The notes under the pieces are model-generated. The model worked only from the letters and a program-made list of their open reading frames with translations. It did not search any database and was not told the origin of the DNA. DNA of 64,000 bases from a virus, in the IMG/VR virus record IMGVR_UViG_3300023110_001943, positions 64,001 through 128,000 of that record. One strand, given 5' to 3'. The position numbers and the translations under genes were made by a program. Of the stretch, positions 41,560 through 61,744 are shown piece by piece. How positions within the stretch are numbered: position 1 is the stretch's first letter; the number at the start of each line of letters is the position of its first letter.

Positions 41560-42729
41560 ATGAAAATAAATTACAAAGATAGAATTAACGAATATCTTAA
41601 AGGCGATGATATCGATGCGGTGGAACTTGCAAGATTGATGAATAAAATTCTTGATAAGGATAAACAATTAAAAGTAGTTACTGAAAAGAAAAATCACATA
41701 AAAATTTTACTCACCACAGGTGCTGGTAATACTATTCAAGGTGGAGCAGATATTTGGGTAAATCATTTTTTAAACTTAGTGTGGCCTTTACTTCCAAATA
41801 AAAAAACTTGGAAACTTTTAATTGACTCTAAAAGACCTACTCAGTTCGACCCAAAATCATTACCAAAAGGATTATTATATCATTTTCATTTTGATGACCC
41901 TGATTTAACAGATAGGTGGTTGGATGAGTGTGAAGAAATTCATTCACTACATTCTCATTATCACAAGAGAGACCATATTTGGCATTGGGAAGATAAATTT
42001 AAAACTATTTTTGTTCACGCATATCCACGAGAAATGTCAGAGGTGGTAGAAAGTATACCCGAACTTAAAAGATTACAATTTAATACCAAAGTAGATGTAA
42101 AGTGGTATGAAGAATATTTAATGACATTCAAAAAAAGAATTTGGATTGGAAATAATTATTCTTCTTTATTTGATGAATTTCCGAACTATACTTACAATAT
42201 TCCAAATTTTTATGAATTTAAAAACAATATTCCAATTACAACTCATAGAGAAAACGGTAAGGTTGGATTTGCTTCGAGAATCGAATCGAGAAAGTGTATT
42301 CATTGGATGAATGAATTAGAAGGATATGCTTTAACATCTCAAATGGATTTACAAAACCTTAGAGATACTACAACTTATTCATTACCAAGAATTAATTTAT
42401 TTCAATGGAACCCAGATATTCATCATAATTTTATGTTAAAAAATTGGGGTATATTTCATGGAGCATATTTCAAAGAACCATTTGGATATTCTATTTTTCA
42501 AGCCGTTGATTATGGTAAAGTTCCAATTATAAATAAAGATTGGGCCGAAGAAGTAGAATATGATTATCGAGCTTCTACCATGAATGAATTTAAAAAGATT
42601 GCTAAAAAAATACAAACAGACCCACAACAAAAGATAGAAAAAAACTTTAACAATCTAAAAGATTACATGAAAAAGTTTGATAATAAAGAAGAATGGGTTG
42701 ATAAAATTAGAAGTACTATTTTAAAATAA
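41560..42729 (+). CDS. GT-B fold glycosyltransferase (GT4-like)
   Basis: N-terminal GGADIW, RIESRK, and EPFGYSIFQAVDYGKVPI. Confidence 0.7.
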   Translation: MKINYKDRINEYLKGDDIDAVELARLMNKILDKDKQLKVVTEKKNHIKILLTTGAGNTIQGGADIWVNHFLNLVWPLLPNKKTWKLLIDSKRPTQFDPKSLPKGLLYHFHFDDPDLTDRWLDECEEIHSLHSHYHKRDHIWHWEDKFKTIFVHAYPREMSEVVESIPELKRLQFNTKVDVKWYEEYLMTFKKRIWIGNNYSSLFDEFPNYTYNIPNFYEFKNNIPITTHRENGKVGFASRIESRKCIHWMNELEGYALTSQMDLQNLRDTTTYSLPRINLFQWNPDIHHNFMLKNWGIFHGAYFKEPFGYSIFQAVDYGKVPIINKDWAEEVEYDYRASTMNEFKKIAKKIQTDPQQKIEKNFNNLKDYMKKFDNKEEWVDKIRSTILK

Positions 42730-42739
42730 TATATTTTTA

Positions 42740-42778
42740 TATATTTATATACGTTTGGTAAAAATTCGTATATTTATA
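42740..42778 (+). promoter_or_regulatory. Tandem putative late promoters (2x TATATTTATA)
   Basis: Copies at 42740-49 and 42769-78, upstream of the main glycan operon. Confidence 0.6.
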
Positions 42779-42858
42779 ATGGGGGTAAGGGGGTAGTGCA
42801 AGACACTAAGACAACTAACAAAATAAAAATAAAATTAGACACCTATAACTAAAGCACT

Positions 42859-58664: not shown

Positions 58665-59803
58665 TGATTTCAACAATGATATTTGCAGGTTGTTCTTATA
58701 CATGGGGACAAAGTTTGCATTTATATGGTGGTTTTAATGATGATAAACATCCTCGTGATGGGTTTTTCTATGACAAATTATTATTACCACATCATTATCA
58801 ATATAATGTAGATAATAGATTTGCAACAAAAGTTGCTGATTACTTTGGAAGAAAACCAATCGTGGCTGCTAGGAATGGAAATTCAAATCCATTAATGGTT
58901 ACATGGATTTATCAAAAGTTAAAAGAAAATCCAAACACCGATTGTATTATAGTTCAGAGTACAAGTTTTGCAAGAGGATATAATCAACTTGGAGATGATA
59001 ACAAACAAATAGATGAATTTAATAAATTAATTAAGTTTGTAGAAGAAAAAGATATCTTAATAAGATTTATTCACATGGATTTGGGAGGTGAGCATTCTAC
59101 ATTAGAACTTTCAGAAGAAATTAAAAGTAGAACTATTTTATATGATAATAAATTGGATTTTTATCATACTATGTTAGTAGTAAACGAAAAAAGAGATTAT
59201 AGAACAATTGGTGCGGATTTCTCAAATAGTGATACACATTTTAATCTTAAGGGTCATGAGTATTTAACAAAAATTATTATTGAAGAATTAGAAAAAAGTA
59301 ATTACGAAAATGTTAAAAAAATAGAATTACCAAAGTTAGTAAAAAATAAAATTTTTAATAAGAATGATTTTGATTCATTATTGGATGTTGTAAAACATAA
59401 TGATAAAAAACAATATTTACTATATTCTGTTGATAAAAATAATGTTGCTTATGATGAAGATTTGACTGATACTAATTTAATTGATGATGTAATCAAAAAA
59501 TTACAAAATTTTAAATTATTAAATATTTGGTTAATGAAATATCCACCAAATTATAGTTTAGGATACCATCAAGATTCGACACACGATTCAAACAGATATG
59601 TTTATGAAATACAGCCATCAGATAATTCATTTTTTGAATTTTTTAACTATAATAAAATATCTAAAATAGAAAATATTAATGATGATATATTATACATAGG
59701 TAATACTTTTCATGATTTTAAAAATAATAGCAAAACAAATACAAGAATATCTGTGGTATTCGATACAAAACTAAAAATTAATAAAATAACAGATATATTA
59801 TGA
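58664..59803 (+). CDS. SGNH-like domain fused to a 2OG-Fe(II)/cupin oxygenase-like domain
   Basis: FAGCSYTWG, GNSN and DTHFN; C-terminal GYHQD...FHDF.N....RISVVFD. Confidence 0.6.
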   Translation: MISTMIFAGCSYTWGQSLHLYGGFNDDKHPRDGFFYDKLLLPHHYQYNVDNRFATKVADYFGRKPIVAARNGNSNPLMVTWIYQKLKENPNTDCIIVQSTSFARGYNQLGDDNKQIDEFNKLIKFVEEKDILIRFIHMDLGGEHSTLELSEEIKSRTILYDNKLDFYHTMLVVNEKRDYRTIGADFSNSDTHFNLKGHEYLTKIIIEELEKSNYENVKKIELPKLVKNKIFNKNDFDSLLDVVKHNDKKQYLLYSVDKNNVAYDEDLTDTNLIDDVIKKLQNFKLLNIWLMKYPPNYSLGYHQDSTHDSNRYVYEIQPSDNSFFEFFNYNKISKIENINDDILYIGNTFHDFKNNSKTNTRISVVFDTKLKINKITDIL

Positions 59804-60348
59804 GTAAACCAGAATTTACACCATATGTAGATGCACTTACAGAAGCTATGAAACTTTGTATGGGCAATCCATCTACAATTTTTATTGGCCAACAGATTGT
59901 GTATTACGGAAACCCAATGTCAAAAACCATTGAAGGTTTACCAAAAGATAGAATGATTGAAACTCCAGTAATGGAAGAAACTCAAATGGGAATGACAATG
60001 GGTCTTGCAATGACAGGACACCAAGTTGTTACTTTCTACCCAAGATGGGATTTTCTTATTCTTGCAGCAAACCAACTTATTAATCACTTGGATAAGTTAG
60101 AAGCGATGTCTGATGGTGAGTGGAAACCAAACGTAATTGTAAGAGTTGGTAAAGGTTCTGATAAACCATTAGACCCTGGCCATCAACACAAAGCAAACTA
60201 TACAGAACCATTCAAACAAATGTTAACAAATGTTACCATTCAAGATTTAAAATCATCAGAACAAATATTGCCTGCTTACAAAACAGCTTTATCTAAAGGT
60301 GGAATACATATATTAGTAGAATATCCTGAATTGTATTATGCAAGTTGA
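59800..60348 (+). CDS. TPP-dependent enzyme, E1-beta-like (pyrimidine-binding) subunit, short
   Basis: FIGQ, IETPVMEETQMG...GLAM.G, NQLINH and GHQH. Confidence 0.85.
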   Translation: MSKPEFTPYVDALTEAMKLCMGNPSTIFIGQQIVYYGNPMSKTIEGLPKDRMIETPVMEETQMGMTMGLAMTGHQVVTFYPRWDFLILAANQLINHLDKLEAMSDGEWKPNVIVRVGKGSDKPLDPGHQHKANYTEPFKQMLTNVTIQDLKSSEQILPAYKTALSKGGIHILVEYPELYYAS

Positions 60349-61744
60349 AAAAATAAAAAATCTGAATATAATTTATGATTTTAGAGGACCAAATGACTGG
60401 ATTCCTAATGCATTAAATTACTATTATTCACAAAAATACTTTGAAAAAGATTTCGTATCAGATTTTGAATTACAAAATCATTTTTTTAAAAATTTTGTAC
60501 AACCATCTGTATTTAATGTATTTTTAAATTCAGACCATTTATTGTTTAATAAATTAACAATACATGATTACTTAAATAATACAAGATATAAAAATGATGT
60601 GTGTTTTTATCTCGTAGAGCCATTTGGTAATTTTAATCATTTTTTAGGAAAACAATTTGGAGGATTTTCAGAAAGTTGTTTTATAGATTTTATTTCGAAA
60701 GATAGTTTAAATAACATTAAAACAAATGATAATTTTTATCTTATTATAAACTATGGCACTGAGGGAGTATTTCCTATTGATTTTTTCTCTAATTTGTATG
60801 AAGTATTAGAAAAATATGAAATACCAGAAAATAAAGTAATTTTATTATCATCCGCAGTTGATATTGAAACATTACATAAAAAAGTAAGAAACCATAATCC
60901 GAAAAAAGTAAAAATGGTTTACTGGCCATGGTCTTTACGATTTAAATCAAAAGAATTAAAAGAGATTTATGATGGGGTTGATTATAAATTTTGGGATGAT
61001 ATCGACCAACAAAATAGTATTGTTAAATCTGAAGATTTAGATTCAAAAATTCGTAAAACAAAGTTTTTATTGATGAATAGAAGATTAAGACCTCAACGAA
61101 TGATTTTGTTATGTTTGTTAGGTTTAGATTTTATAAAAGAAAACTTGGTTTCTTATGATATAAGTTTATTTGATAGAGAAAATGATTTATCATTTTACTT
61201 ACATCATGCAGGTGATGTTATAGGTGAGGAACTTTACGAAAAATCGTTTGATATTATAAACAATAAAAAAGAAACTATTGATTATGATGATATAAATTCT
61301 GTTTGGGGATTTAATTTTGAAAACAAACAACCTTACTTAGATTCATATATTAATATTTGTACCGAAACAAATTTTTATGAAGATGGTTTATACCTTTCAG
61401 AAAAAACTTGGAAACCAATAGGACATTTACAACCATTTATACAAGTTAATAAAGCTGGTGCATTACAAGAATTACGAAATATAGGTTTTAAAACATTTTC
61501 ACCTTTTATAAATGAAGAGTATGATAATGAACATAATGATGCGTTAAGAATAAAAATGATTTCTGATGAAATACTAAGATTAAATTCGTTATCAACTGAA
61601 GAAATACATAATTGGTATGATTCAATTAAAGATATACTTATACATAATCAATCTTTACTTTTTAAATATGCTGAAAGTAAACAAGATACTGAAAGAGAAT
61701 TTATAACAAACTTAAAAAATTATGTGGTTGATAAAAAAAATTAA
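60338..61744 (+). CDS. Putative GT-B (GT10-like) glycosyltransferase, paralog 3
   Basis: FLLMNRR...R; ICTETNF...LSEKTWKPI..LQPFI...GFKTF...NEEYD. Confidence 0.55.
   Translation: MQVEKIKNLNIIYDFRGPNDWIPNALNYYYSQKYFEKDFVSDFELQNHFFKNFVQPSVFNVFLNSDHLLFNKLTIHDYLNNTRYKNDVCFYLVEPFGNFNHFLGKQFGGFSESCFIDFISKDSLNNIKTNDNFYLIINYGTEGVFPIDFFSNLYEVLEKYEIPENKVILLSSAVDIETLHKKVRNHNPKKVKMVYWPWSLRFKSKELKEIYDGVDYKFWDDIDQQNSIVKSEDLDSKIRKTKFLLMNRRLRPQRMILLCLLGLDFIKENLVSYDISLFDRENDLSFYLHHAGDVIGEELYEKSFDIINNKKETIDYDDINSVWGFNFENKQPYLDSYINICTETNFYEDGLYLSEKTWKPIGHLQPFIQVNKAGALQELRNIGFKTFSPFINEEYDNEHNDALRIKMISDEILRLNSLSTEEIHNWYDSIKDILIHNQSLLFKYAESKQDTEREFITNLKNYVVDKKN

Follow-up and report, generated by a model that had tools for sequence, protein, structure and literature searches.

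Giant viruses glycosylate themselves, as exemplified by the capsid glycans of chlorovirus PBCV-1 and the fibril glycans of Mimivirus, and their clusters combine nucleotide-sugar synthesis genes (dehydratase, epimerase and reductase) with several transferases that act in the cytoplasm on surface fibres or capsid, independently of the host ER and lipid carriers. Glycosylating mycobacteriophages reportedly employ one to a few transferases and host sugars to modify capsid and tail-tube subunits of siphoviruses. In phage T4, the DNA carries glucosyl-hmC. Two-carbon branched-sugar pathways, e.g. those of avilamycin (AviB1/B2) and aldgamycin, utilise pyruvate-dehydrogenase-like E1 alpha/beta pairs. 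Virion glycosylation by phage-encoded glycosyltransferases (GTs) of mycobacteriophages was reported by Freeman et al. 2023 (Cell Host Microbe; cited in PMC12582341), and models of DNA glycosylation include arabinosyl-5hoC in RB69 and DLP3 (PMC13326640) and GT clusters of metaviromes (bioRxiv 10.1101/2023.12.21.572611). Host O-chain modification was favoured for the 'host recognition clusters' of aquatic T4-like phages, in which GT8 is the main family (Zaragoza-Solas et al. 2020, PMC7029224).

The glycan block analysed here occupies 41560-61744 of the window, i.e. the whole 64-kb stretch under analysis, and belongs to an uncultured aquatic T4-like phage; judged by the baseplate wedge, the cultured phages nearest to it are Microcystis phage Mel-JY01 and Flavobacterium phage immuto. 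It spans ca. 20 kb directly after the tail-fibre gene, with a polyprotein gene directly downstream. The preliminary description had claimed about 20 co-oriented, mostly overlapping genes; 21 ORFs were counted, all on the + strand, and 18 of the 19 junctions within 42859-61744 overlap, the other being a single 27-nt gap. The features are as follows.

34253..34262, +, promoter-like motif TATATTTATA, 20 nt ahead of the fibre gene
34283..40948, +, fibre-like protein, 2221 aa (S+T 0.24 overall; collagen-like run; Hint domain near 1845-1968)
40964..41520, +, two small ORFs (97 and 88 aa), function not assigned, separating fibre gene and GT4-like gene
41560..42729, +, GT4-like GT-B glycosyltransferase, candidate initiating enzyme; core gene
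42740..42778, +, two TATATTTATA copies (42740, 42769) in the sole sizeable intergenic gap of the block, before 42859
42859..43644, +, SAM methyltransferase (Methyltransf_24); core gene
43632..44474, +, GT2-like (GT-A) protein (Pfam 24.4 bits, below the cut-off of 27.5); core gene
44474..45931, +, GT7 (beta4GalT-like) enzyme 1 with inserted LamG (Glyco_transf_7N + 7C + Laminin_G_3)
45906..46259, +, 117-aa protein, function not assigned
46246..46509, +, 87-aa conserved small protein; core gene
46460..47908, +, GT7 enzyme 2 with inserted LamG (Glyco_transf_7N + 7C + Laminin_G_3)
47905..48315, +, small nucleotidyltransferase (HldE domain II / TagD-like; CTP_transf_like)
48312..49757, +, GT7 enzyme 3 with inserted LamG (Glyco_transf_7N + 7C + Laminin_G_3), most conserved of the trio
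49785..51206, +, twitch-domain radical SAM enzyme (NF033640, 339 bits); core gene
51203..51970, +, 255-aa protein, function not assigned
51967..53376, +, GT-B glycosyltransferase, GT10-like paralog 1 (paralogy, fold)
53343..54335, +, SDR, NDP-sugar dehydratase/epimerase type (profile match)
54322..54906, +, RmlC-type 3,5-epimerase (profile match)
54890..55534, +, minimal TPP-binding subunit, E1-alpha-like, 214 aa (profile match)
55519..56760, +, GT-B glycosyltransferase, GT10-like paralog 2 (the modelled paralog)
56750-57688 and 57672-58664, +, two SDRs, GDP-fucose-synthase type (profile matches)
58664..59803, +, 379-aa protein with SGNH-like N-terminal and 2OG-oxygenase-like C-terminal motifs only
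59800..60348, +, minimal Pyr-domain subunit, E1-beta / Transket_pyr-like, 182 aa (partner of 54890)
60338..61744, +, GT-B glycosyltransferase, GT10-like paralog 3 (paralogy)
61852..61861, +, TATATTTATA copy before the downstream polyprotein gene, at the block end

The genome has 19 copies of the motif TATATTTATA, every one of them on the + strand and 17 intergenic; the 64-kb window holds 10 copies versus 1.5 expected. As had been claimed, it is common to the block and the structural operons, since it also precedes baseplate and fibre units. The two copies at 42740..42778 are the probable promoter of 42859-61744, and the GT4-like gene, with zero copies between it and the fibre gene, would be transcribed with the latter. 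The block may be expressed late, but the claim that it is 'late-expressed' was not borne out: the timing had been deduced from the shared motif, which need not mean 'late' because it also heads a unit at 27956 (sulfotransferase, SegE, primase and SbcCD).

Among the up to eight glycosyltransferases proposed earlier, the three GT7 enzymes are firm, the GT4-like and three GT10-like proteins were assigned by fold, and the GT2-like protein is a sub-threshold match. Profile matches confirmed the families of the TPP pair, the methyltransferase (42859), the cytidylyltransferase-like protein (47905), the radical SAM enzyme (49785), the three SDRs (53343, 56750 and 57672) and RmlC (54322). The putative SGNH-oxygenase at 58664 is borne by its motifs (N-terminal G-C-S-x-x-x-G and C-terminal HxD...H...R) and not by any match in profile libraries or the PDB. 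The three GT10-like proteins (51967, 55519 and 60338) are paralogs with a GT-B fold; in the fold search human FUT9 ranked second (Z 11.2), on a par with further GT-B enzymes, and the chlorovirus transferase structures 3oy2 and 8asa were among the matches.

The block resembles the giant-virus clusters in joining sugar synthesis with multiple transferases, and the chlorovirus matches of the GT10-like protein add to this likeness, whereas those viruses infect eukaryotes and use other enzyme families. We know of no giant virus with a LamG-inserted GT7 or a split TPP enzyme. As in the branched-sugar pathways, an E1-alpha/E1-beta-like TPP pair lies amid NDP-sugar dehydratase, epimerase and reductase genes, but the subunits of this putative enzyme are minimal (214 and 182 aa), lack the usual C-terminal parts and are encoded four genes apart. 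The mycobacteriophage systems are alike in having accessory, cytoplasmic, soluble phage GTs beside structural genes and without lipid-carrier genes; the present T4-like myovirus differs in combining eight predicted transferases with a complete predicted pathway for tailoring sugars. The host recognition cluster is likewise a variable structural-region island of aquatic T4-like phages that mixes tail-fibre genes with GTs, sugar-pathway genes and radical SAM cassettes, but the present phage is not close to HTVC008M, and neither a conserved GT4/MTase/GT2/GT7-LamG/rSAM core nor a fixed insertion site was described there (PMC7029224).

The block GT7s match animal B4GALT1 and B4GALT7 (CAZy GT7) at E values of ca. 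1e-34, and the catalytic motifs of the family are intact (DxD, WGxEDDD, here in the form WGWGxEDDD, and the lid His). Unlike the animal enzymes, they have a LamG domain of ca. 250 residues inserted just before the flexible lid, as seen from the alignment of enzyme 2 to beta4GalT1 (residues 15-166 versus 50-206 and 433-481 versus 218-268), and they have no membrane anchor and are predicted to be cytoplasmic phage enzymes. No match to the GT7-LamG proteins was found among 50,697 GenBank phage records.

Comparison of related loci demonstrated that the block is an accessory cassette, which relatives either carry or lack at a single fixed site flanked by the fibre and polyprotein genes. It consists of a conserved core (GT4-like, methyltransferase, GT2-like, GT7-LamG, small protein and radical SAM genes) followed by a variable sugar-pathway tail, and is dispensable, as relatives such as G006 lack it at the site. 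The 87-aa protein gene lies immediately upstream of a GT7-LamG gene in all position-mapped loci (L100-L105), and 13 of the 15 loci found via GT7 also have the GT4-like gene. Conversely, for 26 of 78 GT4-like loci, the DNA examined around the locus contained nothing that matched the GT7 genes; 20 of these 26, every one a distant relative, lacked matches to the remaining block genes as well. In distant relatives the lone GT4-like gene lies inside the tail module between fibre and sheath/tube genes; the order in L077 is fibre (Peptidase_S74), fibre (S74), GT4-like, Hint+LamG protein, tail sheath and tail tube. The GT4-like gene thus adjoins fibre genes across deep divergence. New here are the fixed-site cassette, the split into core and variable tail, the lone GT4-like gene in tail modules, the lack of lipid-carrier transferases and flippases in complete relatives and the independence from a second ThyA-fold gene (see below).

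The GT4-like protein gave no match in a Pfam search, while its AF2 model (pLDDT 89.8) had GT4 enzymes as top Foldseek matches (E 5e-9). It has 684 homologs, the best 120 of which are all at least 56% identical, with ca. 85 invariant columns. Such conservation is unusual in a glycan transferase and would fit a constant, phage-intrinsic acceptor.

No membrane helix was found in any of the 21 block products (the peak 19-residue hydropathy, 1.76, is in a Rossmann strand), and there is no multi-pass membrane protein in the 141 kb of genome examined. Bac_transf, Glycos_transf_4 (WecA/MraY) and Polysacc_synt (Wzx) are absent from three 100%-complete block-carrying relatives. The earlier claim that flippase and undecaprenyl-phosphate transferase are missing therefore holds, as does that of a cytoplasmic, soluble machinery; the 'protein-linked coat' is a candidate product. 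It counts against virion glycosylation that soluble transferases often use lipid-linked intermediates which host enzymes have produced.

From what is established, namely which genes are present, their folds, the intactness of the catalytic motifs, the organisation as a cassette and the associations across genomes, we infer an acceptor, step order, sugars and timing. We tentatively propose, at somewhat less than even confidence and on the basis of gene position, that the block builds a glycan on a phage-made target, likeliest the tail-fibre or other outer virion proteins, for which virion glycosylation in mycobacteriophages offers a precedent. The cassette would make activated sugars and, independently of any lipid carrier, join them in the cytoplasm into a hetero-oligosaccharide. 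The conserved GT4-like enzyme, co-transcribed with the fibre gene, would attach the first sugar to the acceptor, and the GT2-like protein and two or three GT7 enzymes would lengthen the chain, the inserted LamG lectin-fold domain gripping the growing glycan or a protein surface. Unusual donors, probably 6-deoxy and two-carbon-branched sugars, would be supplied by the SDRs, RmlC, split TPP enzyme, nucleotidyltransferase and radical SAM enzyme of the variable tail and attached by the three GT10-like GT-B enzymes. Decoration of the product would fall to the methyltransferase and perhaps to the carbamoyl-, sulfo- and FkbM-type transferases encoded outside the block.

The assignment of the gene before the block as fibre-like is supported by context: it is Ser/Thr-rich (S+T 30-40% in residues 900-1300), has a collagen-like run and a Hint domain, its N-terminus is conserved across 231 viral stretches, and its Hint+LamG relatives are found in tail modules. 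Ser/Thr richness is common among phage fibres generally. The Ser/Thr fraction is 0.19-0.25 in relatives without the block versus 0.22-0.26 with it, and [ST]GS density is equal too; thus, fibre composition gives virion glycosylation no support. As G006 exemplifies, the fibre works without the block. Of 78 related loci, a single one had homologs of the 97- and 88-aa ORFs. The gene position could also reflect island co-location rather than enzyme-substrate pairing (PMC7029224).

A serious rival, though unlikely in our estimation, is that soluble phage transferases act at the inner membrane face on host undecaprenyl-linked O-antigen, capsule or core intermediates and that the altered glycan, once exported by host transporters, remodels the cell surface in the course of a long latent period, e.g. 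against superinfection or progeny re-adsorption. This is the published reading of the GT-rich clusters that pelagimyophages and cyanomyophages carry alongside tail-fibre genes (PMC7029224), and it agrees with the dispensability of the block, with its O-antigen-like conserved core and variable tail, and with RmlC, SDR and HldE-like enzymes, which are typical of LPS sugar pathways. In cellular-looking contigs, moreover, GT7-LamG homologs adjoin ABC-2 permeases, ABC exporters, GT2 and polysaccharide deacetylase genes, which would fit an exported glycan and counts against virion glycosylation. However, initiating transferase, flippase and polymerase were not found in the phage or the three complete relatives, so every membrane step would need borrowing from the host. 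The GT4-like conservation is far above expectation for an enzyme tracking variable host glycans, the lone GT4-like gene of distant relatives sits in a tail module with no sugar genes nearby, and the motif shared with baseplate/fibre units, if late, would be poor timing for superinfection exclusion.

It is improbable that the glycan goes instead onto a non-virion target (a host protein, the downstream cargo polyprotein or some soluble peptide or small molecule), giving an effector, storage form or protective product. The block does lie directly upstream of the polyprotein gene, and one cellular-looking contig pairs GT7-LamG with GT2 and two MsbA-type ABC exporters and another places it alongside radical SAM enzymes, both pairings being seen in glycosylated-peptide clusters. 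The block, however, contains no precursor peptide, exporter or carrier genes, and the partners of the GT4-like gene in distant relatives are fibre genes rather than the polyprotein gene.

Construction of the glycan on a hydroxylated pyrimidine of phage DNA before packaging is still less probable. DNA-glycosylating phage GT-A/GT-B enzymes resemble LPS and GT4 enzymes (7fg9, 2gej, 3mbo, 7qsg and 6kih top the fold searches of both the DNA GTs, PMC13326640 Table 1, and the GT4-like protein), and their clusters (T4 alpha-/beta-gt, RB69/DLP3, metavirome), which act late, likewise combine GT-B/GT-A with sugar-activation genes, sometimes near structural genes. Complete relatives also encode a second, lineage-specific ThyA-fold protein of the (d)CMP-modifying type, with the CMP 5-hydroxymethylase MilA as best solved match, the catalytic Cys kept and Asp at the position of ThyA N177. 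In contrast to those clusters, which accompany a hydroxylating ThyA homolog or 5mYOX, the ThyA of the window genome is canonical (L143, D169 and N177 kept; criteria from PMC13326640), and the second gene is independent of the block: complete G012 has the block and one canonical ThyA only, while G004-G006 have the second gene and lack both GT4-like and GT7-LamG genes. DNA, which the preliminary description had also considered, is therefore an unlikely acceptor; besides, no known DNA glycan calls for as much as eight transferases, lectin-fold inserts and the synthesis of branched sugars, and cellular GT7-LamG homologs occur in exporter loci. A Tet_JBP search gave no match, its control being equally silent.

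The decorating genes that had been placed elsewhere in the window are real, comprising FkbM, MetK, a carbamoyltransferase, Sulfotransfer_2 and a weak Sulfotransfer_1.

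The glycan block lies on a single viral contig of 141,496 bp (classed as linear, ca. 76% complete), of which the window covers bases 64001-128000. The G+C content is ca. 30%, and practically every gene is on the + strand. A gp25 wedge protein (12680-13111), a CHAP-bearing hub-like protein and a baseplate wedge protein (43% identity to Microcystis phage Mel-JY01 and 38% to Flavobacterium phage immuto) characterise the virus as a distant T4-like myovirus; gp23, gp19 and sheath families were not found in the 141-kb contig, the record being incomplete. The following genes lie upstream of the block.

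29956, primase
30897, fused SbcCD-type nuclease
34283-40948, fibre-like ORF of 2221 aa

A SegE-type GIY-YIG homing endonuclease gene (28708-29205) is located upstream of the primase gene, between a Sulfotransfer_2 gene and a GDSL-like gene. The block itself (41560-61744) consists of 21 ORFs, all on the + strand, which from 42859 on overlap at 18 of 19 junctions, and intrinsic terminators inside it were not more frequent than expected by chance. It had been described as a glycan-synthesis locus with up to eight transferases and pathway enzymes, free of membrane components; protein families, folds and a helix scan agree with this, and a membrane helix was predicted in none of the 21 proteins.

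Ten copies of the promoter-like motif TATATTTATA stand in the window, where 1.5 were expected, and 19 in the contig, exclusively on the + strand. Of the 19, 17 lie between genes, with their ends 3-109 nt (in most cases 14-40 nt) upstream of a start codon. The claim that the block has the same motif as the structural units was confirmed, as listed below.

8974, + strand, baseplate unit preceded by TATATTTATA
12089, + strand, baseplate unit preceded by TATATTTATA
24857, + strand, fibre-like unit preceded by TATATTTATA
34283, + strand, fibre-like unit preceded by TATATTTATA
42740 and 42769, + strand, two copies of TATATTTATA before block gene 42859
61877, + strand, polyprotein gene (directly downstream of the block) preceded by TATATTTATA

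No copy was present between the fibre gene and the first block gene, which encodes a GT4-like protein, and the motif differs from the T4 late box on the coding strand. Late expression of the block is a prediction; TATATTTATA also stands at the head of the unit at 27956, which runs into the sulfotransferase, SegE, primase and SbcCD genes. The survey covered the 141-kb contig; the capsid, sheath and tube genes belong to the missing part of the genome. A further copy at 47637-47646, inside the second GT7 gene and 258 nt upstream of the nucleotidyltransferase gene, could serve as an internal promoter or have arisen by chance.

The preliminary description placed the block right after a tail-fibre gene, and the neighbouring gene is indeed a predicted fibre by context, as judged from the composition of its product, a collagen-like run and the tail modules of relatives. 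Except for a weak Hint match, the 2221-aa protein matched no family. Ser and Thr make up 24% of its residues overall and 30-40% in residues 900-1300 (proteome median, 11%), while Cys and basic residues are nearly absent. Its N-terminus is kept in 231 viral stretches, and a Hint+LamG tail like its own was found on proteins in tail modules of relatives. The assignment as a tail fibre is well supported by this context. We rejected the idea that the Ser/Thr-rich block of the fibre, or its [ST]GS density, goes along with presence of the glycan block: in relatives that lack the block, Ser/Thr fraction and [ST]GS density are unchanged, so that composition does not speak for the fibre as the acceptor.

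Searches against Pfam and NCBIfam identified in the block three proteins with Glyco_transf_7N, 7C and Laminin_G_3 domains, a Methyltransf_24 methyltransferase, a small HldE-domain-II/TagD-like nucleotidyltransferase, three extended-type SDRs (two nearest to GDP-fucose synthase), an RmlC-type epimerase and a TPP pair (E1-alpha-like, 214 aa; E1-beta/Transket_pyr-like, 182 aa). A radical SAM enzyme matched the twitch family NF033640 over the whole protein (339 bits; cut-off, 170). The enzymes named beforehand were thus recovered for the GT7, SDR, RmlC, TPP, methyltransferase and radical SAM genes; the evidence is weaker for the GT2-like enzyme, a sub-threshold Pfam match, and for the 'SGNH-oxygenase' (58664), called from short motifs in the sequence alone. 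PHROGs yielded nothing useful for the block's ORFs lacking a family or for the motif-preceded genes, and neither a PDB sequence search with 34283, 41560, 55519, 58664, 51203 and 42859 nor an ESM Atlas search with 58664 gave a usable match.

The GT10-like genes 51967, 55519 and 60338 are paralogs without a match in Pfam (Glyco_transf_10 included), NCBIfam, PHROG or PDB sequences. One of them was modelled (pLDDT 91.6) and showed a GT-B fold, matching FUT9 (Z 11.2, rank 2), FUT13 (10.5), 5zoi (10.3) and FUT11 (9.6), fucosyltransferase matches that are tied with unrelated GT-B enzymes (Z 10-11.6). FUT9 is a human enzyme, FUT13 and FUT11 are from plants, and one match is a bacterial alpha-1,3-fucosyltransferase. 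There is an invariant T-E-K-like motif (E307, K308), which we take to resemble the GT10 motif. At least three more GT10-like GT-B C-terminal-domain paralogs are scattered upstream of the window (contig 1404-2609, 19798-20865 and 56532-57668), so glycan genes are not limited to the 20-kb block. Also upstream of the window and far away from the block, contig 52642-53667 encodes a 341-aa protein that is a radical SAM relative as judged by its homologs in L109, a cellular-looking locus; in L100, L101 and L109, the homologs lie within the glycan core, between a methyltransferase and a GT2-like gene.

All three GT7 proteins exceeded the family cut-offs (7N, 60-84 bits against 27; 7C, 63-74 bits against 23) and matched animal beta4GalT1 and beta4GalT7 with E values of ca. 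1e-34 (beta4GalT1, 8e-35). Residues 15-166 correspond to the front portion of the catalytic domain and 433-481 to its closing portion; LamG is thus an insertion immediately ahead of the flexible metal-binding lid and not a terminal fusion. Across 24 diverse members, the family keeps its catalytic DxD and WGxEDDD motifs and the His of the lid; H84, D85, G146 and D149 are invariant, and D87, E148, D151 and H421 occur in at least 90%. These features place the proteins in CAZy GT7, the beta-1,4-galactosyltransferase family, with the family's inverting beta-1,4 transfer of Gal or GalNAc from a UDP-sugar as a candidate activity. An exhaustive search returned 10,963 relatives at E ≤1e-3, and the full architecture with the inserted LamG was found in dozens of 50%-identity clusters; tblastn against 50,697 GenBank phage records gave no match for GT7-LamG. 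An 87-aa acidic protein (46246-46509), also found on contigs of 45% G+C, is encoded directly upstream of a GT7-LamG gene and may be a small partner of GT7-LamG, loosely comparable to alpha-lactalbumin with beta4GalT1.

GT7-LamG also occurs on contigs binned as bacterial, beside GT2, carbamoyltransferase, an FkbM-radical-SAM fusion, polysaccharide deacetylase and ABC-2 or MsbA-type transporters. In L109 (Spirochaetales MAG contig, 121-17286), it is accompanied by carbamoyltransferase, the FkbM-radical-SAM fusion, further radical SAM proteins, polysaccharide deacetylase and ABC-2 permeases, and in cellular-looking L107 (6516-15685), by a GT2 and two ABC exporters. The cellular-looking contigs carry three GT7-LamG paralogs. 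These gene neighbours tie GT7-LamG functionally to the carbamoyl- and FkbM-type decorators encoded elsewhere in the window, which the preliminary description had named as possible decorators.

The GT4-like protein (41560) matched no Pfam or NCBIfam family at E 0.01. Its AF2 model, obtained from a 25-homolog alignment (pLDDT 89.8), has a GT-B fold, and its top Foldseek matches are the GT4 enzymes 7fg9, 4xsu and 2gej (E 5e-9 to 2e-8; TM 0.56-0.63), in agreement with the original GT4-like call. The E-x7-E site reads E306-x7-Q314, and R240, K245 and E306 are invariant. Among 684 homologs, the best 120 are at least 56% identical, an unusually high conservation for a glycan transferase. In GenBank phages (n = 50,697), tblastn with this protein gave a sole match, one unannotated 484-kb metagenomic phage.

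IMG/VR searches yielded 15 loci via the GT7 protein, of which 13 have the GT4-like gene, and 78 loci via the GT4-like family. In 26 of the 78, no GT7 match was present in the DNA examined, and 20 of these 26, all distant relatives, show no other block gene. In distant relatives (ca. 33% identity), the GT4-like gene starts 1-7 nt past a large Ser/Thr-rich ORF, and in one locus (L077) two fibre genes with Peptidase_S74 chaperone domains are followed by the GT4-like gene and then by genes for a Hint+LamG protein, the tail sheath and the tail tube. An initiating enzyme with a phage-tail acceptor should show this pattern, and it is the strongest evidence, drawn from gene content and order, for the protein-linked virion glycan that the preliminary description had proposed.

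A core with constant gene order (GT4-like, methyltransferase, GT2-like, two to three GT7-LamG, 87-aa protein and radical SAM) recurs in 46-53 of these 78 loci; the core was also found on contigs of 45% G+C. The tail of the block is variable: 25 loci have SDR and RmlC, 23 have GT10-like genes and 4 have the TPP alpha subunit. The polyprotein gene lies 0.1-3.3 kb past the fibre gene, with no match to block genes, in L269, L277 and L278 and in the complete genome G006 (mapped order SbcCD, fibre, polyprotein). Because the polyprotein directly follows the fibre in these relatives, the whole 20-kb block is a cassette that a genome either has or lacks at a single site. When the block was compared by megablast with 50,697 GenBank phages, no match was obtained, and no cultured relative with the block was found among GenBank phages by megablast and tblastn.

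We tentatively favour the hypothesis that the block encodes a lipid-carrier-free cytoplasmic pathway glycosylating a phage-made acceptor, likeliest the outer tail proteins; the acceptor is deduced from gene position alone. The transferase genes adjoin, or share a predicted transcription unit with, virion protein genes. Virion glycosylation is established for giant viruses. Among phages, it is established for mycobacteriophages (Freeman 2023, as cited in PMC12582341). The block resembles such phage systems in having transferases next to virion protein genes, with covalent attachment of the glycan to virion proteins as a prediction. A more specific version is possible but rather doubtful: aquatic T4-like phages would run their own lipid-carrier-free protein O-glycosylation line, and their host-recognition apparatus would thereby receive an exchangeable coat of sugars. 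In it, the conserved GT4-like enzyme would prime tail-fibre or baseplate proteins, and lectin-guided GT7 enzymes (beta4GalT fold with inserted LamG) and GT10-like enzymes would build a methylated heteroglycan with branched deoxysugars.

Glycan islands next to fibre genes were already known; the unstudied enzyme designs and the defined conserved core are new. Literature searches on the GT7-LamG design, NF033640, the core cassette and GT7 in phages returned nothing relevant. Three designs have no studied member: a beta4GalT fold carrying a lectin-fold insert next to the lid, a minimal split TPP enzyme within a sugar pathway and a twitch radical SAM enzyme linked with glycan genes. If the glycan is on fibres or baseplate, abundant uncultured aquatic phages would bear a swappable sugar coat on their host-contacting parts, which would be relevant to host range, particle stability, escape from grazing and avoidance of sticking to debris, and T4-like phages would join actinophages and giant viruses in virion self-glycosylation.

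Remodelling of the host envelope by the block is less likely but a serious alternative. The 'host recognition cluster' of pelagimyophages and cyanomyophages combines tail-fibre genes with glycosyltransferases, sugar genes and radical SAM cassettes, and modification of the host O-chain was proposed for it (Zaragoza-Solas et al., PMC7029224). The ABC-2 or MsbA-type transporters on bacterial-binned GT7-LamG contigs fit this view, the product possibly being exported in cells. However, no multi-pass membrane protein was found in the 141-kb contig, the block proteins lack membrane helices, and Bac_transf, Glycos_transf_4 (WecA/MraY-type) and Polysacc_synt (Wzx-type) were absent in three complete block-carrying relatives, in a screen for these three families with positive controls. 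The statement that flippase and undecaprenyl-phosphate transferase are missing therefore held within the block, and in the families searched the block differs from lipid-carrier polysaccharide loci (Wzx/Wzy, ABC-dependent) in having no initiating phosphoglycosyl transferase or flippase. If the target is nevertheless the envelope, the block would rank, among lytic phages, with the largest kits for serotype conversion. It makes the question of what the glycosyltransferases of T4-like host-recognition islands glycosylate directly testable, and either outcome settles the point raised for the pelagimyophage and cyanomyophage islands.

An acceptor other than virion protein, envelope or DNA is improbable, and DNA itself slightly more so. 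True thymidylate synthases can be told from hydroxymethyl- and 5-hydroxy-cytosine synthases by the residues L143, D169 and N177 (PMC13326640). The canonical ThyA of the contig (63127-64122, ending at window position 122), which has a ca. 40-residue insertion (ca. 191-230) relative to E. coli ThyA, keeps all three, and the idea that it is a 5-hydroxy- or hydroxymethyl-cytosine synthase was dropped. A second ThyA-fold gene was found in complete relatives (L182:1204-1902 in G001, G002:39474-40169 and G003:203019-203714) and not in the contig of the window. G001-G003 carry it together with the block, G004-G006 carry it without GT4-like and GT7-LamG genes, and the complete genome G012 has the block and only a canonical ThyA. 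This independent occurrence ruled out a dependence of the block on the second gene; unlike phage DNA-glycosylation clusters, the block has no D169N or N177D ThyA homolog tied to it. The Tet_JBP profile gave no match, its positive control being equally silent. The second ThyA-fold protein (232 aa; 73-100% identical across 46 viral loci) has CMP 5-hydroxymethylase MilA as its best solved match and keeps the catalytic Cys, with Asp at the position of ThyA N177 and Arg at that of D169. The lineage with this gene may carry modified cytosine.
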